Source: a bacterium (lineage in GTDB: Bacteria > AUK180). Taken from it: a stretch of 64,000 nucleotides of DNA. The position numbers and the translations under genes were made by a program. Positions within the stretch are counted from its first letter, which is position 1, and every line of letters begins with the position of its first letter. Positions 3,118 to 45,641 of this stretch are shown piece after piece. The notes under the pieces were generated by a model. The model had not been told where the DNA came from and did no database searches. It worked only from the letters and a program-made list of their open reading frames with translations. The DNA is taken from contig JAGLWT010000037.1 in the NCBI GenBank assembly GCA_023133295.1, forward strand, positions 8,638 to 72,637. The letters run 5' to 3'.

Positions 3118-3260
3118 AATTATATTACTGTTTATGTATGCAGAAAGATTCCGCCTTCAAAAAGTACATATCACTTACACCTGCATTCTCTTCTCATTTA
3201 CTTCCCCTATCCCTAATAATCGCCACAACACAACATCGTAACACCTTTCATTCCTCTTTT

Positions 3261-3289
3261 ATTATATAACTATTTTAGAATTTCTACAA
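3261..3289 (-). promoter_or_regulatory. Promoter module P2 (TTGTAG-17-TATAAT)
   Basis: On the minus strand, -35 TTGTAG is at 3289-3284 and -10 TATAAT at 3266-3261, with an exact 17-bp spacer. It lies 144 nt upstream of the cyclase start. The same module occurs at 27700-27728 and 20445-20473. Confidence 0.45.
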
Positions 3290-3505
3290 ATTCTGTATCG
3301 GGCATTTCCATTCTTTTTCTAAATCATCCCTCGTATCGTTCTGCTGCTTTGCAAAAGTATTATCAAATAATTGGATTTTGAACCTTGGTCATTGGGCTAC
3401 TGGGTCCACTTACTAATAATTGTCCATTGTCAATTGTCCATTGTCAATTGCGGTGAAGCCACCGCCCCCATATCTGTTGTACTGAGGATATCCGCCCTAG
3501 GAATT

Positions 3506-3542
3506 CTCAATTTAGGTAAAAAGTAAAGACACGCTACCCTAT
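3506..3542 (+). repeat. Module T core (CTCAATTTAGGTAAAAAGTAAAGACACGCTACCCTAT)
   Basis: One of six copies, all in the same orientation: 3506, 7024, 8049, 24355, 27902 and 35939. Confidence 0.8.
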
Positions 3543-4969: not shown

Positions 4970-5064
4970 CCCCTGATCAATTTTTCTTCTTAATACAAAT
5001 ACCTTCAGATCTTTATCGGTTAACTGTTAAAGGGTCTGGCGGACCGATTATGCAACTTTCGCAA

Positions 5065-5301
5065 CTACATCCCCGGATTTTCCCCAAGCTCATCTCTTAC
5101 TTTGAGAATTGCTCTCCCAGCATGGAACATTACTAAATATGATGAAATGATCGATGCATCAAAGGCATTGCCTTTCAAAGATCTTTCGGATTCTTCTATC
5201 CATTTTTCAGCTTTCTTAAATGACATTTCGGCATGCTCTTTGGATGGGGGCATTTTTCTCAATAATCCTTTTTTAATACAGTCACTAAATTTGAAGGCCA
5301 T
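5065..5301 (-). pseudogene. HEPN-domain protein, 3'-truncated (partner of the upstream MNT)
   Basis: MAFKFSDCIKKG...YLVMFHAGRAILKVRDELGENPGM*. The ORF leaves HEPN-like sequence before the expected R-x4-6-H histidine. Its last codons and stop lie inside repeat module G (5047-5085). The start overlaps the MNT stop by 17 nt. Confidence 0.55.
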
Positions 5302-5827
5302 CTTGATCTCCCATAAGGATAATTGAGCCAAAAACAAGTGAATGATAAAACATGACTTCATCATCCCGCAGTTTCATGATCTTGTCAGTAGTCAATAACA
5401 GTAGCTTACAGTTCGTATTCTTTTTCAAAATATCAGAAGTAAATTCAGCTATTTTTTCCTGATCTTCATCATCTATTCTCACCCAAATATCGATATCTGA
5501 ATCAATGTCATTATCGCCCTTTGCACAACTTCCGTATAGACCGACTGACTTTACAAAATCCATTTTGAAGGGTCGAAGGTCAACAGCATCGACATTGAGA
5601 AGAATTTTTATGCCTCTTGTAAGAGAAGATGCAATTATCATATATTTGGTATTTCGCTTTTCCAGTATTCCCTTTTTCGCTAGCAGTTCAAAATACTTGG
5701 ATACAAGTCCTTTGCTTAACTTCAATTCGGCAGCAGTACTGTTCACTCCAACCACATCGGTTCTGAAAATAATGTGCTTAAGAATCTTCATCCTTTGCTT
5801 TGTAGAAAATATGGCATCCATGTTCAC
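5285..5827 (-). CDS. Winged-helix plus minimal nucleotidyltransferase (MNT-type antitoxin-like)
   Basis: 180-aa ORF. It has the nucleotidyltransferase signature GLYGSCAKGDNDIDSDIDIWV and an N-terminal HTH-like region. Confidence 0.75.
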   Translation of the reverse strand: MNMDAIFSTKQRMKILKHIIFRTDVVGVNSTAAELKLSKGLVSKYFELLAKKGILEKRNTKYMIIASSLTRGIKILLNVDAVDLRPFKMDFVKSVGLYGSCAKGDNDIDSDIDIWVRIDDEDQEKIAEFTSDILKKNTNCKLLLLTTDKIMKLRDDEVMFYHSLVFGSIILMGDQDGLQI

Positions 5828-6114
5828 TCCCCGCGAACCAAGTGTTCACGCTACATAAACTCTTCGTTCACATTCTATAAACTTTTTACTGTTTTGTCAA
5901 GTACTTTTCCATATAAGGTTAACAGATGTCTCTTAATCTCTAACATGATTTGTCTGGCCTTTTTTCTTCTTATTCATAATTATCCCCTTCTCTCTTTCCT
6001 TCTTCACTATCTTCATTCTCCTCTGCACTTGTCCCTTGTACCTTGTGCACTTGTCACTTGTGCTCTGCGAAGCGTCATTTTGCAACAAACGCAACAACCG
6101 ACCCCTGTTTTCCC

Positions 6115-6618
6115 TTAATTAGGAAGCTGAAAAACATTCAGCCATAATATCACCATAATGGAGATACCGAATATCACAGTCACGACAGAAAATACTTTGA
6201 TCATGGATTCGGTCAACTGAATTTCACCGTTTAAGCCCTGTACTTTCGTAAGTAAATTACGATGCTTTATGAGAAATTCCGCTCCACTTTGAAAGAATAT
6301 GAAATAGAGTATATAAAGATAGATGACTAATGCTCCCACATAGAAAGGCACAACATAGGGATTCATCAGCCAGGGCTTAAAAAAGTCCAGCATATCGGTC
6401 ACATTACCAGTGAGACACCCGACAAGCATTATTATAAAAGGGATATTGAATCCAAAGGCAAAGAAATACGCCAATTTCTTGTACCCCTCTATCAATTCTG
6501 AATCGGGGTCCAGACCCTTCGTCCCTTTTGAATAAATAATATACGCATTAACAAAATTGATTATCACTGCCAAAGCAAAAAACACCACGGTCGGAAACAT
6601 CTGCGGCATAACACACAC
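6115..6618 (-). CDS. Multi-pass membrane protein, function unknown
   Basis: 167-aa ORF with about 5 hydrophobic helices. The real start is probably the ATG at 6609 (MPQMF...). Confidence 0.55.
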   Translation of the reverse strand: MCVMPQMFPTVVFFALAVIINFVNAYIIYSKGTKGLDPDSELIEGYKKLAYFFAFGFNIPFIIMLVGCLTGNVTDMLDFFKPWLMNPYVVPFYVGALVIYLYILYFIFFQSGAEFLIKHRNLLTKVQGLNGEIQLTESMIKVFSVVTVIFGISIMVILWLNVFQLPN

Positions 6619-6666: not shown

Positions 6667-7056
6667 ATAATTGGAGTTTGGACCTTGGAGACTGGAACAC
6701 TTGGCCCACTGGATTACTGCGTAGCATAACTTGTGCTCGTGTGCACTTGTCACTTGTGCTCTGCGAAGCATCATTTTGCAACAGATGCAACGACCGGCCC
6801 CGAGTTCTGCTTTTTGAACTTGTAAATAATCCTTACAAGTTGATTTTTCACTTAATTCCCCTCCCTGTCATGCAGAGCCACAGGCGTGGCATCCAGGTTT
6901 TCTTTTATTCTCTATTCAATATTTCTCAACCTGTGAACTTGGAACTTGCGAACATGGAACACTGCGTCTTAACTGTCAAACAGTCAAGCGACTGTTGTAC
7001 TGTGGAAATGCCTTCTCGGGGTTATCAATTTAGGTAAAAAGTAAAGATACGATACC

Positions 7057-7491
7057 CTATCCCGGTAGGGGGAAACATAATCCCAAATCAGTAAAACTGA
7101 ATTCCGCAGATGGTGTCTGCGATTTTTGGGATTTACGCGACGGTGTCGCGTATTTTAGCGTGACATCTTCAATCTCAGAAATATGCGACAGTGTCGCGGA
7201 TATTTTTTCAGGAGAATAAAGTTGATAAAATAGTCTCATTCTCTGTAAATTATCAACACCAAAACCGCGACCAAACTGTTGTCTTAGGTCCGCAGAAAGA
7301 ACTTTTAGTAACTCCTCACCGTATTCTGCCCTCTTTTTACCTTTTTGTTCATTCTCAACGATCATCCGGCCTATTTCCCAATAGGTTGCGGTCATTATTG
7401 AGTTAACTGTCTTTACAGTTGCACCACGGGCTTCATTTATTATTTGTGATACTCCAGAAAGCAAAGACGAATATTCTTTATCTTTAGCCAC
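7057..7491 (-). pseudogene. DUF1016/YhcG-type PD-(D/E)xK nuclease, N-terminal fragment only
   Basis: ...ATVKTVNSIMTATYWEIGRMIVENEQKGKKRAEYGEELLKVLSADLRQQFGRGFGVDNLQRMRLFYQLY matches the N-terminal domain of this family. The nuclease half is missing. The stop codon TAG lies inside the edge of module T. Confidence 0.55.
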
Positions 7492-7550
7492 GGCCTCTCC
7501 TATTCTTCCTTCAACTTGAGGTCACAATCTGTGATCTCATAAATCATGAT

Positions 7551-7655
7551 ATTTTACTACTTCGCAGATATATTTTCAAATTGAACTAATAACTCCGAGA
7601 ATTTCACCGGCATTTTGCAACTTGTGCAATTTATCCCGTAGTTACTTGTAAGCTT
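7551..7655 (-). promoter_or_regulatory. G+P promoter module (TTGAAA-17-TAAAAT preceded by a GTTGC-type doublet)
   Basis: -35 is at 7579-7574 and -10 at 7556-7551, 60 nt upstream of the start at 7491. Upstream sequence is AATTCTCGGAGTTATTAGTTCAATTTGAAAATAT, as in other copies. Confidence 0.55.
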
Positions 7656-7660
7656 ACCCT

Positions 7661-7696
7661 ATCTTCGTATCTTCGTATATACGAAGATACGAAGAT
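7661..7696. repeat. Perfect 36-bp palindrome
   Basis: atcttcgtatcttcgtat | atacgaagatacgaagat. The two 18-nt arms are exact reverse complements. Confidence 0.95.
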
Positions 7697-8100
7697 GCCA
7701 TTTTTCATTTACTCTACTGCCCTGGGGTGTTTATCTGCTTCACTAAGCACTGCTTTCATATGCTCTTGTATTGGCAGTTGTGGCATTTGCCGTAATTGTG
7801 ATGATTGCGCTTTATTGATCTTGGAGCGGAGGTTCGAGAGATTATTCCAAGATTTTGCACCTTTCGCAACGACCGTCCCCGAGTTTCCCCTCGTGAACGA
7901 CTGTCATCCAGAGGGAGTTGGCGACCGTGGGATCCAGTTGGTATCTGTTTCTTGTGCGTTCTTTCATTCTTCACTATTCACTGTTCACTGTTCATTTCTC
8001 AATTGTTCACTTACTACCGTTGTACTGTGGAAATGCAATCTCGGGATTCTCGATTTAGGTAAAAAGTAAAGATACGATACCCTATTCGGTACTTGTCACC

Positions 8101-8700
8101 TCATTTGTGCTTTAGCAGTTCCACAACAACTCTGTGAACTGTGGTTGAAGGATTATTTCCGAACGGATCAAATCTTTCATATTTCTTTAAAAGGTTTGTC
8201 GAGTTTGTGATTGCAATCTTCTGCCTATCGTTCAAAATTTGATACATATTAGGATCATTTTTTTCATATTTCTTTCCTAAATAAATATCTAATTTGCCAG
8301 GATATCGTTTTCTCGAAATTTCCGTATTTAGATATTCAAAATGCAATATATACCAAAGTTCAAATGATTCATTACTATAAACAATGTGAATGTTTTCATT
8401 TTTCGCTAAGGTTATTGCCTGATTTACATTGATCCTATCTGTATTGTCAATATCAAAAACACACCACAACTCGTCATACTTCTCACTATCCTTTTTCTTT
8501 ACGATATGCCTTATCATCCCGCATGGATCAACTGATTTAAATCGAATTTTGACATTGCTTAATCTTTCTATATTCTTCATCCCTTTAAAATAGTTCATTT
8601 CGGTTTCTTTCCCTTGACATACTACTAATATAGTTGGTTTTATTGTTCTCGTTTTAGATATTCTTTGATAATGTTTTCCTAATTTTCTTGTTTTACTCAT
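8101..8700 (-). CDS. RloB-like (Toprim-like) protein, AbiLii-like
   Basis: 199-aa ORF with motifs ILVVCQGKETEMNYF, LWCVFDIDNTD and IVYSNESFELWYILHF. It overlaps the upstream ATPase gene by 4 nt. Confidence 0.8.
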   Translation of the reverse strand: MSKTRKLGKHYQRISKTRTIKPTILVVCQGKETEMNYFKGMKNIERLSNVKIRFKSVDPCGMIRHIVKKKDSEKYDELWCVFDIDNTDRINVNQAITLAKNENIHIVYSNESFELWYILHFEYLNTEISRKRYPGKLDIYLGKKYEKNDPNMYQILNDRQKIAITNSTNLLKKYERFDPFGNNPSTTVHRVVVELLKHK

Positions 8701-9968
8701 TGAGTATTCTTTTTAGTAGGAAATATTTCCTCAATATTCTCTATATCATTCAATATTGGAATCCCTCCAAACTTCCCCAATAAATAATTCTTCTCAATAT
8801 TATAATCATTCCGGATATTAAATTCCTCCAATGAAAATAGCTTGGTCGCCTGATATTTATCTTTTTCAGCAAACCATATTTGATCTCTTCTCAGATTCTT
8901 CTGATTTAATAATGTCCTATCGTGTGCAACAAAAATACATTGCGCGTTTCGATTGTTTGCTTTTGAATTAAAAAGTTTTACTAAATGTGCTAAGAGCAAA
9001 GGATGAAGACTATTATCTAACTCATCAACAACCAATATCTTTCCATTTACCAGAGTATCCAATATTGGCCCTGATAATGAAAAGAATTTTCTTGTTCCTT
9101 CAGATTCTTCAGTATCCATATCTAATTCTACTTGACCAATGTGCTTTCCATCCTCATATTTCTTATGGGAAGTATTGAATTTTACGGCTCTAAGTTTACC
9201 ATCAGGCAATATTTCTACCCTCCGCCTAACGTTTGCCGGTAAAACATTGCCTTCAAGAATTTCTTCCTGAGTTTGCACATCTTCTATGAATAAATCCGCG
9301 GTCTTTAATAATTCGACAACACCTGTTTTCATTTCTCCGCTTTCCAGTAATTTTGATGTATATAATGAGAAATCTCCCATTCCTGAAATAACATTGAAAT
9401 TCTTTATCCATTTCATAATCTTATTGGAAATCACACCATTAAATTGGGCAGCTACAGAAAGAAATAGGGAATTCACTCTTGTTTTATCATCCAAATGCAA
9501 ACCTTCTTTAAATGTATTACCATTCACTTTTATATTTTTTTTCTTTCTATCAAATAGTAAATATTCCTTTTCAGCTCGTGAATAATATAGCCATTCTTTT
9601 GTCACCTCTGTAATAGTTACTTCAAAACCATAACGATAAATTATTTTGTCAATAACAAAGACAATTTCAAAAAATGAAGGTTTATTCTCTGTTTCGGCAG
9701 CCAATTTAAAGTTATTCACATTTAGTCGACTTTCATTTGAACCTAAAGAGGAAGTTGAAATCAGATCTCTAAAAAACTGCATTGCTTTGATTAAATTACT
9801 TTTACCACTCGCATTTGCACCGTATATCGCTGCGCTTTTCAATAATTTAATGTCCTTTAAAGCAGGAAATACATGTTCTTTGTTATCACGATAATTCGAA
9901 GCAACCATACTTAATGTCGCGTTATCCTTGAAAGATAGATAATTCCCTACTGTGAACTGTATTAACAT
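8697..9968 (-). CDS. AAA/ABC-type ATPase, AbiLi-like (OLD-family-type ATPase)
   Basis: 423-aa ORF with Walker A GANASGKSNLIKAM, Walker B ILVVDELDNSLHP and SD GGAG upstream. A paralogue lies at 18467-19726. Confidence 0.8.
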   Translation of the reverse strand: MLIQFTVGNYLSFKDNATLSMVASNYRDNKEHVFPALKDIKLLKSAAIYGANASGKSNLIKAMQFFRDLISTSSLGSNESRLNVNNFKLAAETENKPSFFEIVFVIDKIIYRYGFEVTITEVTKEWLYYSRAEKEYLLFDRKKKNIKVNGNTFKEGLHLDDKTRVNSLFLSVAAQFNGVISNKIMKWIKNFNVISGMGDFSLYTSKLLESGEMKTGVVELLKTADLFIEDVQTQEEILEGNVLPANVRRRVEILPDGKLRAVKFNTSHKKYEDGKHIGQVELDMDTEESEGTRKFFSLSGPILDTLVNGKILVVDELDNSLHPLLLAHLVKLFNSKANNRNAQCIFVAHDRTLLNQKNLRRDQIWFAEKDKYQATKLFSLEEFNIRNDYNIEKNYLLGKFGGIPILNDIENIEEIFPTKKNTQ

Positions 9969-10130
9969 ATTAACACTCCTGATGACTTAATTATAGCACT
10001 TTTAAATGCGAAGTCAAGGATGTAACGTGATATTATCTCGCTACACGGTCGCTTTATCCATTTTTCGGCCGCATATATCGCCTATAATTCCTATTATTCC
10101 CATTTGATCGATACTTTTTAGAAGTGCTTT

Positions 10131-10222
10131 TCTTGATTTAGAAAATATTTTCAAATTGAACTATTACTTCGAGAATTTCAGAGGCATTTTGCAACAAAAG
10201 CAACAACCGTTCCCGGATTTAC
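10131..10222 (-). promoter_or_regulatory. G+P module (degenerate -10) upstream of the AbiL-like operon
   Basis: ...cgagaatttcagaggcattttgcaacaaaagcaacaaccgttcccggattt. -35 TTGAAA is at 10154-10149. Confidence 0.4.
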
Positions 10223-10834
10223 ATGTGGCAGAAATAGCTCTTCTCATCAAGTCTTGCGCATCCTGATATATTGCATTATACAACAATCGTGCAACTCCTG
10301 CAACCACCGTCCCCATATTTTGCTCGAGAAAGAAGATGTGCTCGAGAAAGAAGATGTGAAAGAGACGAGATAGAAAAAGAGGAGATCCGAAAAACGAAGA
10401 TCAGAAATGCTCCAAGGAATATCTCTCCGGGATTTGCTGTGTGCTCCTGTGTTCATTCTTCACTTTACACTTCAGACTTCACACTTCACACTTGCTGAGC
10501 AAGCTCAGCATTGCTTGTGCTCTTGTGCTCTTGTGCACTGCGAAGCGTCATTTTGCAACAAATGCAACGACCTTCCACGAGTTACCTCAAGTCCGCATAA
10601 ACACACCAAAAAACAATCCTACCAATTGTATTGTAATCTGCATACACCCACCTACTACATATTTTACAGATTTTAGGATTGGATTGCAAATACAATGAAT
10701 ATTAATCGTATGAATAATCAACCACGGGTAGAACAGAGCTAAAAAGTCAACCTGGCACTCTATTCATGCTATTTCTCCGTAGCTGCTGCAGGTATAGGAA
10801 CTACCGACCACAAGTTTCAAATTTCTCCATAGAT

Positions 10835-12124: not shown

Positions 12125-13305
12125 TTAGCCTTCTGATACTCATATTTTATTACCTTAAAACTGTCACCTTCATTATCAATTTCATATATGTTTCCTTCTG
12201 TATCTTGAAATTTAAGTCCAGTCCAAGATATTGTTCCATAGATACCTGTAATATTCCCATCATAATCCAAATACAGAATATACAGTCCTTTGTATTTTTG
12301 AAATAATTTAATATGTATTTCATCTTTTTCTTCAGGGATTAGAGGGGGATATATGGAAAGTTCCTTTTTGAATTTAATTCTTACTCTTTTGTTATTCATT
12401 TTCAGTTTAATATCTACCTCATTGTGATTTTCTTTCTTTATTTTCGTCCATTCCATGATTTCTTCTTCTCTTCTCTTTGTTCTTTCCTTTTTCTCTTTAT
12501 TATTTACTTTCTGTTCTTCCTTATATCTGGCAATATCAACTATTTTGTTTGATATTGGATTTATTATATTATCACCCATCCTGATAAAGATTGTCTCACC
12601 TATTCGATGTAATTTACTATCCTCCCACTTCTCCACTACCTTATCATCTATAAACTTCCATACCTCTCCCTTTGGATTATCGGTATTAAGATCTCGTTTC
12701 ATGTAATAATAAAGATTGTCCTCTGAATCAATAACGATATTGATACCTCGGAGATATACTTCACTATAGTTTACAGGCACCATATCTGAAGGGAGACTGG
12801 CTCTTTCCTTTCTCCAGGTCTCCTCTGAATAACCTTTGGGTAAACTACCTTTCAAGCTATCTACTTCAATACTCTTCAAATACTCACCGTCACCATTGAA
12901 TTTCTGTATTCTGTTATTTACTGTATCCAGGATGTAAATTTCTCCCTTACTATTCACAGCAAGGCTATCCGGCTTAATATCCATCCAGCTATCCGGCCCC
13001 AATTGTTTCAAATACTTAGCGAACACCCCTGGTTCATCACTTATCCACTTCAGAGGTGCTTCAATAACAATTTTCTCAACATACTCGTATACCGGCACAT
13101 TCATCTTATCAATATCGTCTATAACAATTTCTTTTACATCACCGGTATTATTCTGCTCTTCTACAACGACTTCCGGATATTTCACTGGTTCTTCTACCTT
13201 TATTTTCTTTTCTCCGATCGGGAGGACCCCACTCAACGCGAATGCTGCACCCGCTACCGCAATAATTCCAACTGTTACCAGCGTGATTGCCAGACCTTTT
13301 TTCAT
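12121..13305 (-). CDS. Membrane-anchored NHL/beta-propeller-repeat protein
   Basis: 394-aa ORF with an N-terminal TM helix and an NHL-like repeat, IYILDTVNNRIQKFNGDGEYL. It overlaps the downstream gene by 4 nt and has SD AGGAG. Confidence 0.5.
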   Translation of the reverse strand: MKKGLAITLVTVGIIAVAGAAFALSGVLPIGEKKIKVEEPVKYPEVVVEEQNNTGDVKEIVIDDIDKMNVPVYEYVEKIVIEAPLKWISDEPGVFAKYLKQLGPDSWMDIKPDSLAVNSKGEIYILDTVNNRIQKFNGDGEYLKSIEVDSLKGSLPKGYSEETWRKERASLPSDMVPVNYSEVYLRGINIVIDSEDNLYYYMKRDLNTDNPKGEVWKFIDDKVVEKWEDSKLHRIGETIFIRMGDNIINPISNKIVDIARYKEEQKVNNKEKKERTKRREEEIMEWTKIKKENHNEVDIKLKMNNKRVRIKFKKELSIYPPLIPEEKDEIHIKLFQKYKGLYILYLDYDGNITGIYGTISWTGLKFQDTEGNIYEIDNEGDSFKVIKYEYQKAN

Positions 13306-13433: not shown

Positions 13434-13895
13434 AAACAGAGATAGCCAAATAGTTAATTAACTGTTTGACTGTATGTTAATGCCGCAAGTCAAATATTTA
13501 AATCGAAATCTTTCCCGATATCCCTCACAAGATTGTAATCCTGAATCCCCTCTTTGTCAAATTTTGCCAGGATTTTAGTTACTTGCAAAATGTCTACTTT
13601 GTCTACCACCGTCCTAAGGGTTCCACAAAATAGTTTAATTAAGAAACTGGAATTTGTCAAGTTTTGCCAGGAATTTGTACCAAATGCAACTACTGTCCCC
13701 GAGTTTTAGAAGTAAGGTGTAACTGTTATCCTTTGCCATTATAACTCCAAGTGATTTCTTTTATTTTTATGCTCCTCGCAGAATGAGACAAGATCTCGAG
13801 CATTTGCTTCACCCCTCTAAACCATTCTACTGCTTTGCAAATATATCTTCAACTAATGTGATTTTGGACCTGTACACGGGATTACTGCGTAGCGT

Positions 13896-13989
13896 TACTT
13901 GATTTGCAAAGTATTTTCAAATTAATCTAATAACTTTGAGAATTTCAGAGGCATTTTGCAACTTTCGCAACAACCGTCCCCGAGTTTCC
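13896..13989 (-). repeat. G+P module copy (degenerate -10)
   Basis: ttacttgatttgcaaagtattttcaaattaatctaataactttgagaatttcagaggcattttgcaactttcgcaacaaccgtccccgagttt. Confidence 0.7.
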
Positions 13990-14088
13990 TATTTACAAGT
14001 GAAAGAAGTGAAACACCGTCCCCTATTCCTTACTAGATTTTTGAAAATGATGAAAGAAATGGTAAAATTGTATTGAATTACATATTGA

Positions 14089-15093
14089 ATGTTTTTTGAG
14101 GAGGTAATTGTGAATAGATATGTATCATGCACTTTAGTCCTGGCAATACTATTTCTCTCTCTATTTCATGTCAAAACGGATGCAGTTATTAACAAATACA
14201 CGGTTGAATTAATTAAATCAGTAGAAGATGCAAGAAACAACATTGTTGACATCAAAGTCGATGGTAATTATATATACTGCATTTTCGCAGAAGCAATAGG
14301 TAGATGTTCTTTGTATAGGTACGATACCTTGAATCAAACTTGGAAATATTTCTTTTCAGAAGAATCGTTAGAGTTTGACATAGATAGTCTTTACATTTAC
14401 ACTGGATATGCAGTATATAAAAAGGTAGACGGGAAAAAAATAAAAGAACTGAAGATGTTGTTTAACAATGATTATCACGAGGGAATATTAACTGTAGTAA
14501 AGGATGGACAATATCTCTGGGTGGGAACTGAGGATGGCGGTTTGTGCAAATATAATTTAGCTAATGATTTCTGTGTAAATTATTATGAACGGACAATTTT
14601 AGAGGCTGGAAAAGAGATTGGCGGGGAAGACATCTCAGTAGTTATACCATCAGACGAAGCTCTTTTTGTTGGTCGATGGGACGGGATGAGCATCTTATTT
14701 TATGAAGAAAACAAATGGATAAATACCTTATATACCAAATATGTTCTTAGTATGGGAATTTCAGAGAACATTTTTTGGATCGGGATTGGAAGAGAAGGTC
14801 TTCTGAGGATGGATTTCTCGCAAGAACCCGCCGGAATTAACTTTGTCAAGGAATTTGAAGGTAAATACCCAACTGATATAATTGCACTCCAAGAAGAAGT
14901 ACTTGTTCTAGGTGAAGGTTACGGTATTCTCAATATCTCTAATGATCTGAAAAATATTAAATACATTTCTAATGATGAAATATGTCAGAAACTTGAAGAA
15001 AAAGATAATTTCATTCGTTCTTTTGCTCTGGACGAAAACGTTTTATGGATCGGCACAAATAATGGCTTGATGAAATTATCTATTACTGATTAG
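14089..15093 (+). CDS. Secreted beta-propeller protein (two-component-regulator-propeller-like repeats)
   Basis: 334-aa ORF with repeats YLWVGTEDGGLCKYN, IFWIGIGREGLLRMD and VLWIGTNNGLMKLS. Confidence 0.5.
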   Translation: MFFEEVIVNRYVSCTLVLAILFLSLFHVKTDAVINKYTVELIKSVEDARNNIVDIKVDGNYIYCIFAEAIGRCSLYRYDTLNQTWKYFFSEESLEFDIDSLYIYTGYAVYKKVDGKKIKELKMLFNNDYHEGILTVVKDGQYLWVGTEDGGLCKYNLANDFCVNYYERTILEAGKEIGGEDISVVIPSDEALFVGRWDGMSILFYEENKWINTLYTKYVLSMGISENIFWIGIGREGLLRMDFSQEPAGINFVKEFEGKYPTDIIALQEEVLVLGEGYGILNISNDLKNIKYISNDEICQKLEEKDNFIRSFALDENVLWIGTNNGLMKLSITD

Positions 15094-16189: not shown

Positions 16190-16208
16190 CTGAATCTCCT
16201 ATATTGCT

Positions 16209-16307
16209 ATTTTACTGGATTTGGTATATATTTTCAAATTTAACCAATAACTCAGAGAATTTCAGAGGCATCTTGCAACAATTGCAGCGACCGTCCCCGA
16301 TTCTCCC
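16209..16307 (-). promoter_or_regulatory. G+P promoter module (TTGAAA-17-TAAAAT), archetypal copy
   Basis: -35 is at 16237-16232 and -10 at 16214-16209, 20 nt upstream of the start at 16189. The gene strand reads GGGAGAATCGGGGACGGTCGCTGCAATTGTTGCAAGATGCCTCTGAAATTCTCTGAGTTATTGGTTAAATTTGAAAATAT... Confidence 0.6.
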
Positions 16308-16330
16308 TTATTTTATTATCAGGTAAATTA

Positions 16331-17014
16331 TTATTTCTCTGTGAACTCCCCTTCCCCACTATCATAATAAAAATCCGTTAATCCGTACTCCATAGGGTTG
16401 GGACAATGTATAGAAAAAGCTTTGTATTTCTTAACATACTCATAATCCTTCTTACTAATTGGATCAACGATTCCCCTCTTTAAATAGCCAGTTTGCATAA
16501 GGAAACCTCCATTTTTTGCTGGTAGGTATTCATCGGGCATTTCACCTCTATTATCATCCATATACATTTCAATTGCATCTGCGATTTTCTCCATATTATC
16601 CTTTGACTTTTGCAGATATAATTTCGTTTTAACATTTTTACTCATTACTTTTTCAACAAACGCAATATCATATTCATTTTCGTCGTAGTAAAATATCGCC
16701 TTCTTCCCATCTTCCTTGAGGAATATATATGAGTACGTAACTCTATCATCTCCGAAACACAGTACCTTGTTATATGTTCGGTATTCAAGTACTGAATATT
16801 CCATGAATTCAATATCTGAAACATCTGAATCAAATATTACAATTTCATTTTGTGTAATATAAATATGTGAATCATTCTCCCATTTACCTGTACCCTTCCA
16901 ATGCCCCTGGACTTTTTCAAGATAAGAATAGTCTTTCTTAGAAAATGTCTTACCGACAAGCATTATCGCAATCACTAGAACCATAGTAAAGATGATATAC
17001 TTTTTCATATACAC
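16331..17014 (-). CDS. Secreted/lipoprotein-like hypothetical protein
   Basis: 227-aa ORF with an N-terminal hydrophobic signal, KKYIIFTMVLVIAIMLVG. Confidence 0.5.
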   Translation of the reverse strand: MYMKKYIIFTMVLVIAIMLVGKTFSKKDYSYLEKVQGHWKGTGKWENDSHIYITQNEIVIFDSDVSDIEFMEYSVLEYRTYNKVLCFGDDRVTYSYIFLKEDGKKAIFYYDENEYDIAFVEKVMSKNVKTKLYLQKSKDNMEKIADAIEMYMDDNRGEMPDEYLPAKNGGFLMQTGYLKRGIVDPISKKDYEYVKKYKAFSIHCPNPMEYGLTDFYYDSGEGEFTEK

Positions 17015-17025
17015 TCCTTAGAAAT

Positions 17026-17054
17026 ATTTTACTTGATTTGGAATACATTTGCAA
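17026..17054 (-). promoter_or_regulatory. Promoter (TTGCAA-17-TAAAAT), degenerate G+P module
   Basis: -35 is at 17054-17049 and -10 at 17031-17026, 12 nt upstream of the ATG at 17014, so the leader is very short. Confidence 0.5.
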
Positions 17055-17114
17055 ATTGACTTACTATTTAAGAAAACTCATCGGGATTTACACCAAATGC
17101 AACGACTGCATGTG

Positions 17115-20332: not shown

Positions 20333-20444
20333 TTCTGCTTAGGACTATGGTATATTGTTATTTTCCCCACACCTCATTAATTCGATCTATGATTTTTTGT
20401 TTAGGATTATTGCATAACATCGTAACAGCTTTCATTCTTGCTTC

Positions 20445-20473
20445 ATTATATAGTTATTTCAGAATTTCAACAA
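20445..20473 (-). promoter_or_regulatory. Orphan P2 promoter module (TTGTTG-17-TATAAT) pointing into the 3' end of the plus-strand RloB gene
   Basis: Same module as at 27700-27728 and 3261-3289. No minus-strand ORF follows it. Confidence 0.35.
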
Positions 20474-20525
20474 ATTCTGCATGGTATATTTCCATTCTTA
20501 TTCAAAATCCTCCCTGTTATCGTTC

Positions 20526-20619
20526 TACTACTTTGCAAAAACATTTTCAAATTGACTTAATAACTTGGAGAATTTTAAAAGGCATTTTGCAACAAATGCA
20601 ACTACCGCCCCCAAGTTCC
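20526..20619 (-). repeat. G+P module copy (-10 TAGAAC)
   Basis: ctactactttgcaaaaacattttcaaattgacttaataacttggagaattttaaaaggcattttgcaacaaatgcaactaccgcccccaagtt. Confidence 0.7.
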
Positions 20620-20633
20620 TTTGACAGTAATAG

Positions 20634-23962: not shown

Positions 23963-24354
23963 TTCGAGATCAAGATATAAATGTGAATGATTTTTAACCT
24001 GATAAAATATCATGGAAATCCGGGGACGATTGTCCCATACCATGCAAGTAGCTACGGGATAAATTGCATTTGTTGCATTTTTAGTGTTCAAATCTCAAAT
24101 ACCTCCATTCTCAACCGTTTTATTATATCACACATTGAATTGAAATCAAATCCAATTTTCTTGGCTGATCGAAATGTTCTCTCCCCACACCTTATGCCCT
24201 ATGCATAGTTATTTATTGAAAGGAAACAATCAATTTTGAAACTTCTGCAACGTCCCAATTTTCCCCAAGTGACAGAAGTGAAACACCGTCCCAGATTTTC
24301 TCCCAGTCAAACAGTCAAACGACTGTCGTACTATGGAAATGCCCTTTCTGAATT

Positions 24355-24396
24355 CTCAATTTAGGTAAAAAGTAAAGATCCGATACCATATCCCTA
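24355..24396 (+). repeat. Module T copy, 3 nt beyond the stop of the KAP NTPase gene
   Basis: ctcaatttaggtaaaaagtaaagatccgataccatatccctat. Confidence 0.8.
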
Positions 24397-27300: not shown

Positions 27301-27683
27301 AATCTTAGATTGAGTTGTTTTGTATATTGTTCTCTCTTCTTTCCTTTTAAGATATCGTTCGCAGCTTGAATCAAGAATTGTCTACGAAAACAATCATCAG
27401 CATATTTCCATGCATTGAAATATGATAATGTAAATTGCCTACCAAAACTATCTTCTTGCTTAGCGTATTGTTTAAACTTGTTAATAACAGAAGATTTCCC
27501 ACTTCCCCACGGACCCAATAATCCAATCACGAACGGAGCATTATTGGAATTGTCTAAAATTATGGATTTTAAAGTACTTGCGATAGCTTCATGATCAAAT
27601 GGATCCGTTTCATTATCTGCCCCGTGAAAAGCCGGGACATCTTTAAGTAAGTTTAAATCAAAACCATTTTTCTTCTTTGACAT
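24399..27683 (-). CDS. KAP-family P-loop NTPase
   Basis: 1094-aa ORF with Walker A GLLGPWGSGKSSVINKF, two or more TM helices inserted after the P-loop (VAFIAVVFIAVCIALIPGFMIYGF...) and Walker B IFVIDDIDRC. Confidence 0.8.
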   Translation of the reverse strand: MSKKKNGFDLNLLKDVPAFHGADNETDPFDHEAIASTLKSIILDNSNNAPFVIGLLGPWGSGKSSVINKFKQYAKQEDSFGRQFTLSYFNAWKYADDCFRRQFLIQAANDILKGKKREQYTKQLNLRFIRELEKEFHLTDSFETIKSSTKSLVAFIAVVFIAVCIALIPGFMIYGFINKSFWALMLSFLPLLSGSFVLNTLIGKIFPKLFELKVDPQIILPEHFEEEFIRIIEDTGSDSEKYIFVIDDIDRCSHEMILNVLDSIKTFLASNDSDLETYKRCFFIITMDGHAVADILSKERSGKYDNIQELTKFFDVFLRMNVITNSDLIDYGREISTKIGLPEEVMNIAYYGGFDTPRKLKHYLNNIKTTLFMLTEREEQQVFAHDPFEIVDEIAKLKVIEFVFPTFYQEIIDEHTIMENYQARAIKSKGFLGGKFTKTERSFNKFLWETRTINVKDLNSLIFQKYPKYALMIPDYTNLLEAIRSYSIEVLKLLDIKNIPILRSILNVFQDQFYKKPVGTLLLNLLQSAIYVYKEQVSDYSLKKMYSKLIVSSILESDKIFEFMIKDIISLAENSENQNFLEEYLNKGISLITPDIFPETIAEFLSLFYSNHAMHFRKSVATRIDETLVLIDDNEWLMDVLVGTEINANEKWIESKHRIFDQDMIVRCIKEYLKTDSTPMKNFRKRVIVMKKYWDDSIEQAVISQMALAFQYWSAKQNTEPNENINNYFTLIGAFSFNSHKEFSNISENLQKIYNKFKEIDRNIIIIPFLIACYYSSDNDRRYDDSGNLISLSSNETFEESIRFILNMQKIKEDSWWDRLNSSMVKYTVNRFIANINNDTFTHKIDTLITNHFPFSDQQKQAIINASINLSFNKIMELELILNDLIDNEQMYNWYKSKVYSIVNSISQTEPQKVNHFLGLLSKKSKLFGDETVVADYIFNLSTHSNIYLRKAGGKALSFIQNILGEALFKTKINIKIQEVFTKPAREIILYVETTDAFLEYQSLFEPEINGLLLSALEGLISINDGTYIKSVQAILDSIQKKYFGQRQRIRLKELPKLINDNVRRKDLQNFLEKTYKFKYRRKKAKSDENQAKG

Positions 27684-27699
27684 CTTTCATTCTTGCTTC

Positions 27700-27728
27700 A
27701 TTATATAGTTATTTCAGAATTTCTACAA
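27700..27728 (-). promoter_or_regulatory. Promoter module P2 (TTGTAG-17-TATAAT)
   Basis: -35 is at 27728-27723 and -10 at 27705-27700, only 17 nt upstream of the KAP ATG at 27683. Confidence 0.55.
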
Positions 27729-27989
27729 ATTCTGCATAGTATATATCCATTCTTTTTCTAAATCACCCTTATTATCGTTCTACTGCTTTGCAAATATATT
27801 TTCAACTAATTGGACTTTGGACCTGAGAGACTGGGACACTGGGCTACTGGATCACTGGGCTACTTACTACCGTTGTACTGTTGAAATGCCCTCTCAGAAT
27901 TCTCAATTTAGGTAAAAAGGAAAGACACGGTACCCTATCGGCACCCTATTCTCCGATTCGCGCTCATTGTTAAAACAAAATGCACTGGA

Positions 27990-29000
27990 TCAGCTTTTAT
28001 CCTCATTTTCGTTCTCATTTGGATCAGCTCCACTATCATCTATATTATCTAAATCATTTACATCTTCCAATGGTTCTTTTTCAGTAATACTCTCTGATTC
28101 ATCCTGAGGTAGTTCAGATTCTTCTTTTTGTTCAGCTGTCTCTTCAATTACCTCTTCAGGGACTTTCTCCGCTTCAGCGCCTTCTGTTTGGTCAGCTTTC
28201 TCTTCAATTACCTCTTCAGGGACTTTCTCCGCTTCAGCGCCTTCTGTTTGGTCAGCTGTCTCTTCAAATACCACTTCAGGGGCTTTCTCCGCTTCAGCGC
28301 CTTCTGTTTGGTCAGCTGTCTCTTCAATTACCTCTTCAGGGACTTTCTCCGTTTCAGCTCCTTCTGTTTGGTCAGGAATCTTTCTAGTTTCCTTCTCTTT
28401 ACTTCTTGTCGTCAAGAATTGAAATATTAAACATATGATAAATGAAACTACAAATACATAATGAATGAAATGTATCGAATACATAAGGGCCGCTGCTCCA
28501 TCTTCCAGAATGGACATAAAGAGCCAATCCAAATTGAAAAGGAAATTCCCGATACTCCCGGAAGATATTGCAGAAATCGCTAATGTCAGACAAAATGATC
28601 CTACGATAGAGGTATTACATATTGTTGCAATCCTACCCCCTTTGGCACCCCAGATGGAAAGACCTATAATCCCGGCAATACTTAATAATATAAGCATGGC
28701 ATTGGCAGTTGCAAGTTCCATTTCAGGATTGATATGTATCATAATAAGAGTAATACTGGTTGCTAAGAATCCTCCGGCGACCATACCAATAACTATCCGG
28801 GTTATCTTATGAAGAAGAAAGCTTAGTCCGACTCCGATTACTATGAAGATCAAAACTATAATTGTTCCTTGCTCACTATTATGAAACAAAGCAGCTCCCA
28901 GGAACATGAATACAAATCCCCAGATCAAGGCATTAGTAAGCTTGAATACTTTATGTCCAAAAAGTCCAAGCATGACACCAAGGAATAGTAAATAAATCAT
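27990..29000 (-). CDS. Polytopic membrane protein with an acidic 20-aa tandem-repeat C-terminal tail
   Basis: 336-aa ORF with about 7 hydrophobic helices, then 4 repeats of ADQTEGAEAEKVPEEVIEET. Confidence 0.6.
   Translation of the reverse strand: MIYLLFLGVMLGLFGHKVFKLTNALIWGFVFMFLGAALFHNSEQGTIIVLIFIVIGVGLSFLLHKITRIVIGMVAGGFLATSITLIMIHINPEMELATANAMLILLSIAGIIGLSIWGAKGGRIATICNTSIVGSFCLTLAISAISSGSIGNFLFNLDWLFMSILEDGAAALMYSIHFIHYVFVVSFIICLIFQFLTTRSKEKETRKIPDQTEGAETEKVPEEVIEETADQTEGAEAEKAPEVVFEETADQTEGAEAEKVPEEVIEEKADQTEGAEAEKVPEEVIEETAEQKEESELPQDESESITEKEPLEDVNDLDNIDDSGADPNENENEDKS
28131..28374. repeat. Four tandem 60-bp repeats (coding)
   Basis: Sequence lines 28141, 28201, 28261 and 28321 are near-identical with an exact 60-nt period. 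Confidence 0.9.
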
Positions 29001-29253
29001 AATAGCCCCCTAATCTTATTTATTGTAAGTATATCACTAAATACAAATAATCCTAAATATGAATTCCATAATATCACTGTCATCATTTTTTGCTCATCAG
29101 TGAAAGAAGTGAAACCCCGTCTTCCTGTGCATGCTATCACCTTCCCCTTGCTCCACTGGGTCCACTGGGTTACTGGGCTACTGCCGAAGGCTTCTTTTGC
29201 AACAAATTCAACAACCGTCCCCAAATTCCTGATACATTTTCTCATTATACTTC

Positions 29254-29706
29254 TTACGATTTAAATTTGACATTATTCCATATTATCCCTGCACATGCAA
29301 CCACACAAGCAACAATAAATAGTGTACACGACTGCTTTGAAAAATGTCTAAAAACACACCCAAGAGCTACTAAACTCTCTATTGAACCTATAAACATGAT
29401 CAAAACCATTAAGCAAGAAGGAGATGACTCTTTCTTAATCATCTCGGCATTATAGGCTAAAACAGTCGCTGCAAGAAAAGGAATCGCAATGGAGAGATGA
29501 ATAACAGCCATTTCAAGATACTCATCTAGCGAATTTACCATTACCAGTTGGATTAGTACATATGCGGAAATTGCCAGTAATCCTAAAGCAGATAAACGAT
29601 TTTGCAGGTTCATCATGAAATCAAATTTCTCTTCTTTCTTTCCTTCATCAACAGTCATATCTCCTCCGTTAGAAGTCTCAAATGACACACTAAAACACAT
29701 TATCAT
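29254..29706 (-). CDS. Membrane protein, function unknown
   Basis: 150-aa ORF with 3-4 hydrophobic helices. Confidence 0.45.
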   Translation of the reverse strand: MIMCFSVSFETSNGGDMTVDEGKKEEKFDFMMNLQNRLSALGLLAISAYVLIQLVMVNSLDEYLEMAVIHLSIAIPFLAATVLAYNAEMIKKESSPSCLMVLIMFIGSIESLVALGCVFRHFSKQSCTLFIVACVVACAGIIWNNVKFKS

Positions 29707-29949
29707 TTTTAATGTTCGCCTGATTGTTTTTAGGCGTAACTCCTTTGCCCTTTTCCGCTTGTGATTTTTTCATCTGAGCCTCCTTTAGCAACTAATGATT
29801 ACTTAGCATTTTGTATGCCATCTAAGGCTTTCCATATAATATTTCGCGATTGAATATTTGATTAATCTACACTTGACTGATAGTAACAAATAAGCAACAT
29901 TTGGGATATATTTTCAAATTGAATAATAAAATGAATTATTCAATGCTGC

Positions 29950-30756: not shown

Positions 30757-30806
30757 TAATACACCTCCTTGAATTACAAATGTTAATCACATAATTACTA
30801 TGATAT

Positions 30807-30905
30807 ATATTACTTGATTTAAGAAATATTTTCAAATTAAACTAAGAACTCTGAGAATTTCAGCGTCATTTTGCAACTTTCGCAATTACCGGCCCCGAAT
30901 TGGCT
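30807..30905 (-). promoter_or_regulatory. G+P promoter module (TTGAAA-17-TAATAT)
   Basis: -35 is at 30835-30830 and -10 at 30812-30807, 51 nt upstream of the start at 30756. Confidence 0.55.
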
Positions 30906-30921
30906 TTCTTGCCAAATGTTA

Positions 30922-32463: not shown

Positions 32464-32481
32464 AATATCCTCTCTCTGGAT

Positions 32482-32575
32482 ATTTTACTTGATTTGCAAT
32501 AAATTTTCAAATTGAACTAAAAACCTCGTGAATTTCAGAGGCATTTTACAACAAGTTCCTGAGTTCTCCTCGGCA
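32482..32575 (-). promoter_or_regulatory. G+P promoter module (TTGAAA-17-TAAAAT)
   Basis: -35 is at 32510-32505 and -10 at 32487-32482, 19 nt upstream of the start at 32463. Confidence 0.55.
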
Positions 32576-32587: not shown

Positions 32588-33217
32588 TTATTCTATTAAC
32601 TTAAGCGTATTTACTCTATCCTCACAACTAGTACACAACATGCAATGGTGACTTCCAATTGAATTACATGAAAATGTCTTTTTGTAAGGAATATCCTTCG
32701 TTGTAATATTAGCAATTACTTCTTCCCTATCTTTCTCCATAAATGGTGCTATTATTTTAAATTTTCTATCTCCCTTGTTCAATAATTTCTCAATAGCGCT
32801 AACATATTCTTTCTTTGTATCGTAATATGACTCTTTTCCAATAACCCCAATGGCTATTTCATATATATCTTTTCTATAACCATAGTTAGAGGCTAAAGTT
32901 AGCAATAAGAGGTTTCTATTTGGAAAGCATTCTTTCTGGTACCATTCACTTCTAATATAATCTTTCTCAGGAAACTCTCCTATTAGAGTACCACTACCTA
33001 TAGTTCCCATATTTTTAATATTTAATTCGTATAACCGGTCTTTGAATTTTTTATCTAGAATATTATGTATAGCTTTCTGTTCTCCCTCATATGATTTTTG
33101 TCCATAGTTTATGAAAAGGTGGTATATATCATAATTTTTCTTTAATAACCAATAATGCAGTATCGTAGAATCAATACCCCCAGAATATAGAAGGATAGCT
33201 TTTTTATTGATCACCAA
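32588..33217 (-). CDS. QueC-like PP-loop ATPase (7-cyano-7-deazaguanine-synthase family)
   Basis: 209-aa ORF with PP-loop ILLYSGGIDST, then INYGQ, FPNRNLLLLTLAS and a C-terminal C-x7-C-x2-C-x2-C zinc motif (FSCNSIGSHHCMLCTSCEDR). Confidence 0.75.
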   Translation of the reverse strand: MVINKKAILLYSGGIDSTILHYWLLKKNYDIYHLFINYGQKSYEGEQKAIHNILDKKFKDRLYELNIKNMGTIGSGTLIGEFPEKDYIRSEWYQKECFPNRNLLLLTLASNYGYRKDIYEIAIGVIGKESYYDTKKEYVSAIEKLLNKGDRKFKIIAPFMEKDREEVIANITTKDIPYKKTFSCNSIGSHHCMLCTSCEDRVNTLKLIE

Positions 33218-34481
33218 TTTCCTTTACTAACTCTTCTAAGGAATTTACTATTGAATCACAACCATGCTCTATCATATTGTTAAGTTTTACACTATTTGTC
33301 TTCAAACCAATAACTGATATACCTTTGGATTTTGCATACCCTATTTCAAAAAACGTACCAGGATCATAGACATCCACAACAGCAACAACACAATCTGCAC
33401 AGCATATTTTTTCTATGTCTTGTTTTACAATAGCTTCTTTTTCAGTTTTATCCATCCCTTCATTGATAGGGCCAATGTCTCTTACTGGAGAAATTACTTT
33501 ATAACCAGAAGCTTCTAGAACATTACATACTTTTGTTATCCAATCATACTCAGATTCAGAAAAAAACGGGCCAGCTAAATAAATAGTTTTCTCTATATGT
33601 AGATATTTTTTTCTTTCTTCCATCTCTTTTATTACTTTGTCTTCAGAAATAATATTTTCAATATTTTTTTGCTCGATAAAATTAGCGGCTACACAGGAAG
33701 CGATTTCCGCACTCTTAAAAACATTAATTCCCTTACAATAATTTGCAACTAAAGCTCCGTCATAAACATCCCCTGAGCCTAATGTGCAAAACACTTGAGA
33801 TTCGTATGAGCTTATCTTTTCCTCTTTCGTTGTATCGCATACTATACTACCTTTAATGCCTTGTTTAAGAATAATTATTTCAACATTTTTTTCTTTCAAA
33901 ATTCTAAATGCCCGTTCGGTTTCTACTTGTTCAGTAAGAAGATATAATTCCTCTTCATTAATAAGGAGTATTTTTATTTTATAATCCGTTATTATTTTTT
34001 TTGCCTGTGCAATTGAAAATTCATTCGGTTTTGGATCTAAAATTACTGGAATATTATTTTTATTTGCTTGTTTTATTGTTTTATTTGGAAAAGAATGGTC
34101 GATTGGGAAAATTACAAGTGCATCATATTTTTTGTTAAGCTTAGGTTCATAATCTATACCAATCCTACTAGTATTTGTTGGAATGCTATCTTTTTTTCCA
34201 TATTTACTATATCCGGTTACTAAATAATTTGGTAATAAGTATTTTTCGTCCATTTTTGCTTTGCTAAAATCTATTCCCATTCCACGCCATACCGACAAAC
34301 TATATTCATCTACCTTTGGGGCATATACAGTAAAAAAATCTACTTTAGCACCTTGTTTCGCTGCACTAATTGCAGAATATAACCCTGCTCCCCCCATTCT
34401 CCAAACAATTTTGTTATCATCAATTAACCAATCGGTTGCTATTTCTCCATATATTGCAAGTTCTATTTTCTCACTTTGCAT
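33204..34481 (-). CDS. Fusion protein: PfkB-family (ribokinase-like) kinase plus nucleoside 2-deoxyribosyltransferase-like domain
   Basis: 425-aa ORF. N-terminal motifs are GGAGLYSAISAAKQGAKV and GSGDVYDGALVA. C-terminal motifs are IYLAGPFFSESEYDW...CADCVVAVVDVYDPGTFFEIGYAKSKG. Confidence 0.7.
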   Translation of the reverse strand: MQSEKIELAIYGEIATDWLIDDNKIVWRMGGAGLYSAISAAKQGAKVDFFTVYAPKVDEYSLSVWRGMGIDFSKAKMDEKYLLPNYLVTGYSKYGKKDSIPTNTSRIGIDYEPKLNKKYDALVIFPIDHSFPNKTIKQANKNNIPVILDPKPNEFSIAQAKKIITDYKIKILLINEEELYLLTEQVETERAFRILKEKNVEIIILKQGIKGSIVCDTTKEEKISSYESQVFCTLGSGDVYDGALVANYCKGINVFKSAEIASCVAANFIEQKNIENIISEDKVIKEMEERKKYLHIEKTIYLAGPFFSESEYDWITKVCNVLEASGYKVISPVRDIGPINEGMDKTEKEAIVKQDIEKICCADCVVAVVDVYDPGTFFEIGYAKSKGISVIGLKTNSVKLNNMIEHGCDSIVNSLEELVKEIGDQ

Positions 34482-35184: not shown

Positions 35185-35192
35185 TATTAGAT

Positions 35193-35606
35193 TTAATGAA
35201 TACCTTTTACTTCAACTTGTATTGTAGGATTATTTGCTGATCCTTGTATAGAGGTGATTTTGCCTTCATATTGCCAGCCTTTTTTAATACATTCTAAAAT
35301 AACACCTTTGCTTGGAGGGACTAATCCAATCTTAAAACTATCTTCCTTTTTTAAAACACTTAATTGTGAAACTCCGCCTTCTTCACTTAATACTATTAGA
35401 ACTTCATCATCAATGTGACATTTTTCCCATACTTCTTGCTCATTATTTTCAATTACAACATCAAATATCTGTGTTCTTGCACATTTATCATCGTTGTCTC
35501 CAGACTGGCCGGCGCCTTGAGAACCGCCTGCTCCTGCGCTTCCATTATTATCACTTTTGTTTCTATAACCACCTGAACCATAACCGGATCCTGATCCTCC
35601 GCCCAT
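35193..35606 (-). CDS. Small protein with a Gly/Ser-rich N-terminal tail (MGGGSGSGYGSGGY...) and an unknown ~90-aa C-terminal domain
   Basis: 137-aa ORF with a strong SD (AAGGAGG) 4 nt upstream of the ATG and an extended -10 TGTTATAAT about 40 nt upstream. First gene of the operon. Confidence 0.55.
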   Translation of the reverse strand: MGGGSGSGYGSGGYRNKSDNNGSAGAGGSQGAGQSGDNDDKCARTQIFDVVIENNEQEVWEKCHIDDEVLIVLSEEGGVSQLSVLKKEDSFKIGLVPPSKGVILECIKKGWQYEGKITSIQGSANNPTIQVEVKGIH

Positions 35607-43824: not shown

Positions 43825-43870
43825 GAAATAATAATTGTATTAAGGGGACGGTGTTTCACTTCTTTCACTT

Positions 43871-45626: not shown

Positions 45627-45641
45627 ATATTATTCCCTCGT

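Follow-up and report, generated by a model that had tools for sequence, protein, structure and literature searches.

In the intergenic DNA of a bacterial defence island we found a module of ~105 bases that recurs upstream of unrelated genes and is built of three parts, here called G, M and P. We consider it somewhat better than an even bet (probability about 0.55) that this module is a lineage-specific composite linker, which would provide each cassette with a promoter and, at the same time, with portable homology for cassette exchange. The DNA analysed (hereafter, the window) is a stretch of 64,000 nucleotides corresponding to bases 77171-141170 of a 146-kb metagenome scaffold (ENA ERZ23498665), and the sample was taken from reduced sediment at the Site-F cold seep, South China Sea (SAMN18200500 / SRR13892600; PMC9357000). 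The same linker arrangement is present in the ENA scaffold, in the NCBI contig and in an independent Logan contig, which excludes an assembly artefact.

Setting and gene content of the island

One accessory island of ~61 kb spans ~1.1-62.6 kb of the window. It is bordered on one side by an adenylate/guanylate cyclase gene adjoining a che operon, the distant relatives of this cyclase being found in Leptospiraceae and Spirochaeta, and on the other side by a glycosyltransferase/radical-SAM operon. Its defence content includes AbiL (twice), KAP NTPases, PDC-S02, a PDC-S14-like protein and a type I restriction-modification system, together with a SocA/Panacea antitoxin-domain protein, MNT/HEPN-type pairs, a QueC-containing cluster, AbiE copies, Fic and HepT. 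Scans against Pfam and NCBIfam detected no integrase or transposase among the ORFs scanned from the ~61-kb island, its flanks and the corresponding loci of a sister metagenome-assembled genome (MAG).

Some of the genes have features of their own. The cluster at 32588-35606 (minus strand) encodes a QueC-like protein, a fusion of a PfkB kinase and a nucleoside 2-deoxyribosyltransferase, an Ogg-like glycosylase and a 137-aa ORF, and may be a DNA-modification-type defence module. In-frame tandem repeats of 60-nt units lie inside a TM7S3-like gene (28053-28412), and 9/15-nt periodic repeats extend over ~700 nt (56754-57440) of a 504-aa ORF (56168-57682) whose C-terminus matches the LIC11435 family weakly. 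AbiEii is found as two ORFs (44441-44956 and 45249-45626, minus strand) adjoining an AbiEi gene and, given this split, the AbiEii at 44441-45626 has probably been disrupted; on the plus strand, AbiEi and AbiEii are both intact in a pair at 48437-49944. The DUF1016/PDC-S02 gene at 7057-7491 (minus strand) encodes the N-terminal domain only (144 aa) and its end coincides exactly with the start of a second repeat unit, module T, described below; no C-terminal remainder was noticed downstream when the sequence was read.

Copies of the module in the window

The focal copy (16202-16314, minus strand; nhmmer E=1.6e-30) is bounded by the stop of ORF 16331-17014 and by the start (16189) of a HARE-HTH/RAMA (PDC-S14-like) gene, annotated with Pfam and PADLOC. 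Read on the minus strand, it comprises the anchor GGGGACGGT (16298-16290), a tandem 9-mer pair, CGCTGCAAT/TGTTGCAAG (16289-16272, the 'GTTGC doublet'), a middle segment M of 34 nt, ATGCCTCTGAAATTCTCTGAGTTATTGGTTAAAT (16271-16238), a TTGAAA -35 box (16237-16232) followed by a 17-nt spacer, and a TAAAAT -10 box (16214-16209) that was also called by a promoter scan. Anchor and 9-mer pair make up G, and TTGAAA-17-TAAAAT makes up P. An AGGAG stands at 16200-16196 and the ATG at 16189 on the same strand, so that the start codon is 19 nt downstream of the -10.

A first-pass annotation had listed eight full or near-full copies. The nhmmer profile that we built from these eight and ran on the window recovered all of them (E 1.4e-17 to 2.5e-31) plus at least eight partial copies, but the copies listed at 17026 and 32482 turned out to lack the GGGGACGG anchor. 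All copies read on the minus strand and fall within the 5-33 kb interval. Patterns of the module, exact or near-exact, gave 6 and 7 matches versus 0.00 expected by chance. The copies are 65-90% identical to each other over ~100 nt, and the proteins encoded downstream belong to unrelated families.

Besides the focal one, four copies carry a good -10 close to a gene: 7545-7652, which has a variant anchor (TAAAAT, 59 nt before the truncated DUF1016/PDC-S02 gene); 17017-17108, a partial copy without anchor and with TTGCAA as -35 (TAAAAT, 11 nt before a 227-aa ORF); 30802-30910, a full copy (TAATAT, 50 nt before a PD-(D/E)xK-like gene); and 32474-32573, which has a hairpin instead of the anchor (TAAAAT, 18 nt before a 513-aa ORF), all of them on the minus strand. 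In the remaining three, also minus-stranded (listed before as 10131, 13896 and 20526), the -10 box is degenerate and there is no adjacent gene. In the full copy at 10120-10233 the -10 is AAAAGC and lies 157-162 nt before an AbiLi/AbiLii pair; in that at 13887-14001 it is disrupted to TAACGC, followed by the lead-in of a heptamer array; and the full copy at 20515-20631 is an orphan, fused to the P-b/leader type described below, that points into the 3' end of an AbiL pair encoded on the plus strand. Only five window copies, then, combine a good -10 with a start codon at 11-59 nt. The genes served are indeed unrelated, with AbiLi/ii, PDC-S02, PDC-S14-like and PD-(D/E)xK-like genes in the window. 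The view that each cassette is flanked by standardised linkers was overstated, as plus-strand cassettes lack the module and G+P is combined with T at two cassettes only (7057-7491 and 8101-9968).

G also occurs alone. One such piece (6071-6123, minus strand) abuts the stop of ORF 6115-6618 and is followed by a heptamer array, and nhmmer detected further minus-strand pieces at 5047-5083, 6771-6813, 7844-7891, 10287-10321, 10544-10588, 13665-13706 and 29195-29233; six of these eight had been proposed before and two (10287-10321 and 13665-13706) are additions. The sites previously regarded as promoter-only relatives were weak (E 0.004-0.2) and heterogeneous: that at 13405 was undetected, that at 6638 belongs to the P-b kind, and that at 29905 is a P without G and M. 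Both plus-strand sites of this group (46331-46359 and 61564-61592) lie in a duplicated upstream region of OMP genes and have only AAATCAAGTAAAAT in common with P, followed in either case by GAGAGGCCGGTTTCGAGTGAAACCG. The OMP beta-barrel genes themselves are duplicated with near-identical flanks (43833-44101 and 46414-46682).

Anatomy of the module and of its sibling units

The module is a composite of three separable parts. G begins 14-32 nt past the stop codon of the upstream ORF in 6 of the 8 full copies. M is restricted to full copies, and an inverted relative of it is found inside module T. P is seen with or without G and M, in two main forms and a third, -10-proximal variant. The P-a form has TAAAAT as -10; the P-b form reads TTGAAA-17-TAGAAC and is followed by a leader of ~150 nt, in which a further promoter-like site (TTGTAG-17-TATAAT) and an ATGAAAG start are found; the third form, CCCAAATGTTG..., lacks a good -10. 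P-b with its leader was found upstream of the KAP NTPase gene (27680-27843, minus strand), and siblings from the same repeat family lie, also on the minus strand, at 3241-3404 (before the cyclase gene) and 20425-20588. Four copies of P-b/leader were counted in locus L001. The ATG of P-b is the KAP gene's own start codon, and in the copy before the cyclase gene the same ATG begins an upstream ORF of 12 codons.

Module T is a sibling unit located at gene 3' ends, with a copy at 27839-27938 and others at 3443-3542, 6961-7060, 7986-8085, 24292-24391 and 35876-35975, all on the minus strand and identified as a repeat family and by profile. Read on that strand, T has an anchor-like ATAGGGTAYCGT, then a TCTTTAC/TTTTTAC pair and then the inverted M-like segment, with the same polarity as G. 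The alignment of T with inverted M scored 31.5, versus 18.0±3.4 in shuffles, and 6 of 2000 shuffles reached 31.5. T has no hairpin and in this it is unlike an intrinsic terminator.

P as a putative promoter

The TTGAAA-17-TAAAAT at 16237-16209 matches the sigma-70 type at 10 of 12 positions, and the same holds for 5 window copies and 2 MAG copies. When window and MAG copies were taken together, a TA...T -10 went with a start codon within 60 nt and a degenerate -10 with the lack of a nearby gene (6/1/1/8; Fisher p=0.009). The canonical promoter proposed by the first-pass annotation is therefore supported indirectly, by the sequence of its -35, its 17-nt spacing and its -10, whose integrity tracks an adjacent start codon, and transcription probably starts at P. 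The -35 is equally conserved in gene-less copies, and hence its conservation may simply reflect a young age. Allowing one mismatch at most, TTGAAA-N16-18-TAAAAT occurs 25 times in the window versus 6.5 in shuffles; as it also precedes hsdR and a plus-strand gene, it is probably the general promoter form of the organism.

Distribution beyond the window

Exact patterns, which catch only ~40% of copies, were searched among 185,579 species-representative genomes and matched only the sister MAG (RS_10_39, JAGLGN01, from the same seep), on two contigs. A scan for CheA likewise matched this MAG alone, and the affiliation of the lineage is hinted at weakly by the spirochaete-like relatives of the cyclase and by the labels 'bacterium' and 'Candidatus Calescamantes bacterium' on proteins of its cluster. 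The MAG copies lie again on the gene strand and in defence-gene regions: GmrSD/HEC-05 is found directly behind one of them, and the module-bearing regions also hold Abi_2, a Cas4-like nuclease, an ATPase with a D12 methylase, and KAP. In JGI metagenomes, the 65 pattern matches were all non-significant by profile and are thus chance matches; in IMG/VR, there was no match to the T pattern, and five matches to the G+P one, judged by pattern alone, are presumed to be chance. Literal strings of the module sequence gave no match in the literature searched. Within these searches, the module family is lineage-restricted and appears tied to defence contexts.

A larger unit, of 280 nt, starts with a G piece and ends in a perfect 17-bp hairpin (7660-7697). 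The window has one copy of it (7608-7887); the sister MAG has two, on either side of a TPR gene (12465-12713 and 14240-14518 of the reverse complement of locus L009). The window copy contains a Cys-rich plus-strand ORF, which a stop interrupts in the MAG copy.

G belongs to a family of polar anchor units

G is a member of a polar anchor family. Sites of the GGGGNCGGT anchor number 27 in the window versus 0.3 expected, 15 of them on the minus strand (1044-30896) and 12 on the plus strand (43844-60025), so that the anchors change strand completely between 30.9 and 43.8 kb, a flip in which the minus-strand genes take no part. Most heptamer arrays flip along with the anchors, and the cumulative GC skew drops until ~46 kb and is flat beyond. 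Most anchors are then followed by a tandem short-repeat pair whose two members match within a unit and differ between units, the 9-mer variants being GTTGC, GTTGGCATA, GTTGACAT and TTTCACTT.

The right half of the island has a plus-strand repeat family of its own (50130-50790, 52120-52400, 53690-54790 and 59570-60190), in which the order is a CT-rich tract, GCGATTGGCAACCAGATAT, the anchor, GTTGRCATA twice and TGTTATAAT, an extended -10 located ~59 nt past the anchor start. These right-half units point into the 3' ends of minus-strand toxin/defence genes, and no conserved fold was found downstream of their promoters.

The association of anchor and doublet with P could mean that GGGGACGG and the GTTGC repeats bind one regulator, which would co-regulate all the cassettes from P. 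A shared operator would fit the fixed distance at which the direct repeats stand upstream of the -35 in full copies, the joint change of both half-sites in one copy and the presence of a Peptidase_S24 (LexA/CI-like) gene in the sister island. However, in half of the G copies what follows is not P but a heptamer array with a GCTTCGCAG lead-in or the 280-nt unit, and this occurrence of G without P weakens the idea of a shared regulator. The 9-mer pair also differs from one anchor unit to another and stands at anything from 34 to 84 nt from the nearest -10, the right-half units are oriented opposite to the genes, and no candidate binding protein was identified. Such co-regulation therefore seems unlikely to us.

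The strict polarity, which flips mid-island when gene orientation does not, would be expected of selfish mobile repeats, that is, of non-autonomous units copying themselves just downstream of genes, possibly by a single-strand, replication-coupled insertion, with the promoter being incidental or occasionally co-opted. The position of units immediately 3' of stop codons, the six copies of T in the window, with no exact match outside the window's strain in the sister MAG and other genomes searched, and the tandem duplication of M+P in one sister-MAG copy point in the same direction. Yet the units have no terminal inverted repeats, hairpins or target-site duplications, and no transposase was found. 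Neither anchors nor module copies are present in ~15 kb of flanking core DNA, the copies appearing confined to the island (and the MAG pattern matches to the two contigs); their identity of 65-90% does not correspond to a recent burst; and the integrity of the -10 tracks the presence of a gene. On balance, a selfish origin of the units is improbable.

Comparison with known element classes

No known RNA was recognized: the whole window gave 0 matches to Rfam 15 at the gathering threshold and an empty tRNA scan, and no conserved fold, whether as RNA or as ssDNA, was found in T or in G+P, for which alifold gave -1.8 kcal/mol and 0 covarying pairs. The module is not an attC site, since its ssDNA folds (-7 to -12 kcal/mol) have z-scores of -1.2 to +1.4 versus shuffles, there is no hairpin dyad, and the boundary strings GGGGACGGT and GTTGCAA depart from the GTTRRRY core, the C at position 5 of GTTGCAA breaking the RRR. 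Neither is it a MITE, given that self-complementarity and terminal inverted repeats are lacking and no flanking duplications were seen in the aligned copies, nor a palindromic repeat of the REP/BIME/Correia type, as it forms no stable stem-loop.

Regulatory and coding readings of its parts were discarded as well. A sigma-54 promoter at the doublet would need GG at -24, where TT stands. There is some resemblance to an RfaH ops/JUMPStart-like element (GGGGCGGTAGCGTG vs GGGGACGGTAGTTGC), but G is placed upstream of P, and a paralogue of NusG was not seen. Two doubtful ORFs read through G, usually without a start codon, and the ORF is unconserved in the MAG. Of a palindromic operator TTCAA-T-TTGAA at the -35, the -35 half alone is conserved. 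Finally, inversion of cassettes between M and the inverted M in T was rejected, as the plus-strand cassettes do not have the expected flanks.

Linkers at the junctions between strains

The comparison of strains was a single one, between two haplotypes, the window and the sister MAG; according to look-ups of the cyclase protein cluster, all other samples are one of these two. The genes common to both haplotypes are 95-97% identical. A block of cassettes of 24.5 kb (3435-27928) is replaced by 2.3 kb in the sister haplotype, with both junctions in linker units, and the remaining cassettes are unrelated between haplotypes. On the right, the haplotypes part exactly after ATAGGGTACCG, which is followed by T in the window and by G in the MAG. 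Moreover, the linker upstream of the MAG cyclase gene is chimeric: of the informative sites, 13 of 15 in its upstream half agree with the window copy upstream of the KAP gene, and 11 of 13 in its downstream half with the window copy upstream of the cyclase gene (Fisher p=0.003 for the best of ~30 possible breakpoints, uncorrected for this choice). A further linker with its leader (29748-29923) is 85% identical between haplotypes, the homology stops at the -35, and the upstream cassette is unrelated.

The gene behind this last linker encodes a small membrane protein (29254-29706 in the window and 5379-5834 in MAG locus L002), equivalent in position and with 32% protein identity, and the next gene, TM7S3-like, is 97% identical between haplotypes. 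P is dispensable for TM7S3, since the orthologous gene has M+P in the MAG and G with a heptamer array in the window.

Linkers are therefore common to the strains and their cassettes differ, the indel junctions lie at sub-boundaries of linkers, and one linker is a chimera, all of which supports, from one strain comparison, the earlier proposal that linkers act as homology arms for cassette shuffling. The linker has taken part in recombination, and this recombination was probably homologous and not site-specific.

Chromosomal integrons (attC / VCR) are unidirectional arrays with ~100-nt lineage-specific repeats and strain-variable cassettes rich in defence and toxin-antitoxin genes, and their cassettes are mostly promoterless. 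As in integrons, unrelated ORFs in one direction are split here by ~100-nt repeats and the content is variable; unlike them, the linker has no dyad, no GTTRRRY core and no nearby intI, carries a predicted promoter and sits 5' of the gene it serves. A site-specific system of this general kind, in which the anchor and 9-mer pair (and their T variant) would serve as the recombination site for an enzyme encoded elsewhere and cassettes would be captured or excised anchor-to-anchor with the promoter travelling inside the unit, could explain why cassette turnover between strains is near-total in a unidirectional array with ~100-nt lineage-specific repeats between unrelated ORFs. Repeated units span anchor to anchor in three different contexts, one junction lies exactly beside an anchor-like sequence, the polarity of anchors is perfect (15 minus and 12 plus), and both 9-mers have changed together in one MAG copy (to GTAGAAAAA twice). 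There is also a precedent in rAID-1, the orphan-immunity arrays of Bacteroidales, in which repetitive intergenic sequences 'reminiscent of integrons' accompany T6SS immunity genes and a conserved XerD-family recombinase (bioRxiv 10.1101/471110). The present array resembles rAID-1 in being a large array of defence-type genes with repetitive intergenic sequence, but its cargo consists of anti-phage and toxin-antitoxin genes and the 61-kb island, together with 5-10 kb on either side of it, yielded no recombinase, the XerD-family recombinase characteristic of rAID-1 being absent at both island boundaries. In addition, attC-like dyad symmetry is lacking, the crossover of the chimeric linker is inside P, away from the anchor, and the right-half anchors point against the genes. 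We regard a dedicated site-specific system as quite doubtful.

Discussion

Our preferred reading is that of a composite linker with a double role. P would be a sigma-70-type promoter, so that each defence or toxin-antitoxin cassette, acquired separately, would have a transcription start of its own near the ribosome-binding site. G, apart from the promoter, would mark the boundary just after the upstream gene, and the units would fill the intergenic DNA of the island. As linkers recur between unrelated cassettes and are common to strains, they would serve as portable homology: cassettes would be inserted, deleted and swapped by recombination between linker copies, in the simplest case homologous and of the RecA type, and an incoming gene would land behind a ready-made promoter. 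Homologous recombination leaves the polarity, the copy-specific 9-mers and the exact junction by an anchor-like sequence unexplained, and these hint at a dedicated mechanism; neither does it account for the first arrival of the units between unrelated genes. A more speculative proposal, to which we give a low probability, is that the units of GGGGNCGGT anchor and 9-mers are boundary or recombination sites of an undescribed, non-attC cassette-capture system for defence genes, which would supply every cassette with a promoter and, in P-b, with a full translation start as well. The opposite polarity of the two arrays would then result from outward growth from the island centre or from replication-coupled single-strand insertion.

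Other modular repeats are known to accompany exchangeable regions. The Correia elements and NIMEs of Neisseria, with minimal mobile elements, and the BIMEs of E. coli and ERIC are genome-wide sequences with palindromic or terminal inverted repeats; they are modular, can carry promoters and flank regions that are exchanged by homologous recombination. The linker is like them in being modular, in carrying a promoter and in flanking strain-variable genes, but its units are non-palindromic, polar and apparently island-confined. Reuse of promoters before different genes has been described under the name of putative mobile promoters, defined by similar promoter-bearing upstream regions before non-homologous genes in one genome and its close relatives (Nijveen, Matus-Garcia and van Passel 2012, PMC3575422). 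The linker shows the same promoter reuse and, unlike putative mobile promoters, it has three parts, spans the whole intergenic gap, lies in one defence island in a single orientation and is found at cassette breakpoints between strains.

Defence islands turn over fast, which raises, outside integrons and mobile-element hotspots, the question of how new genes are both integrated and expressed. One short linker could do both, as it combines a promoter with homology common to all cassettes and to related strains. If transcription and recombination at the linkers prove true, this would be an integrase-free, integron-like assembly of an immune gene array in an uncultured cold-seep lineage, and the polar anchor units would offer a handle for finding similar arrays, as well as new defence genes by their position behind a linker.
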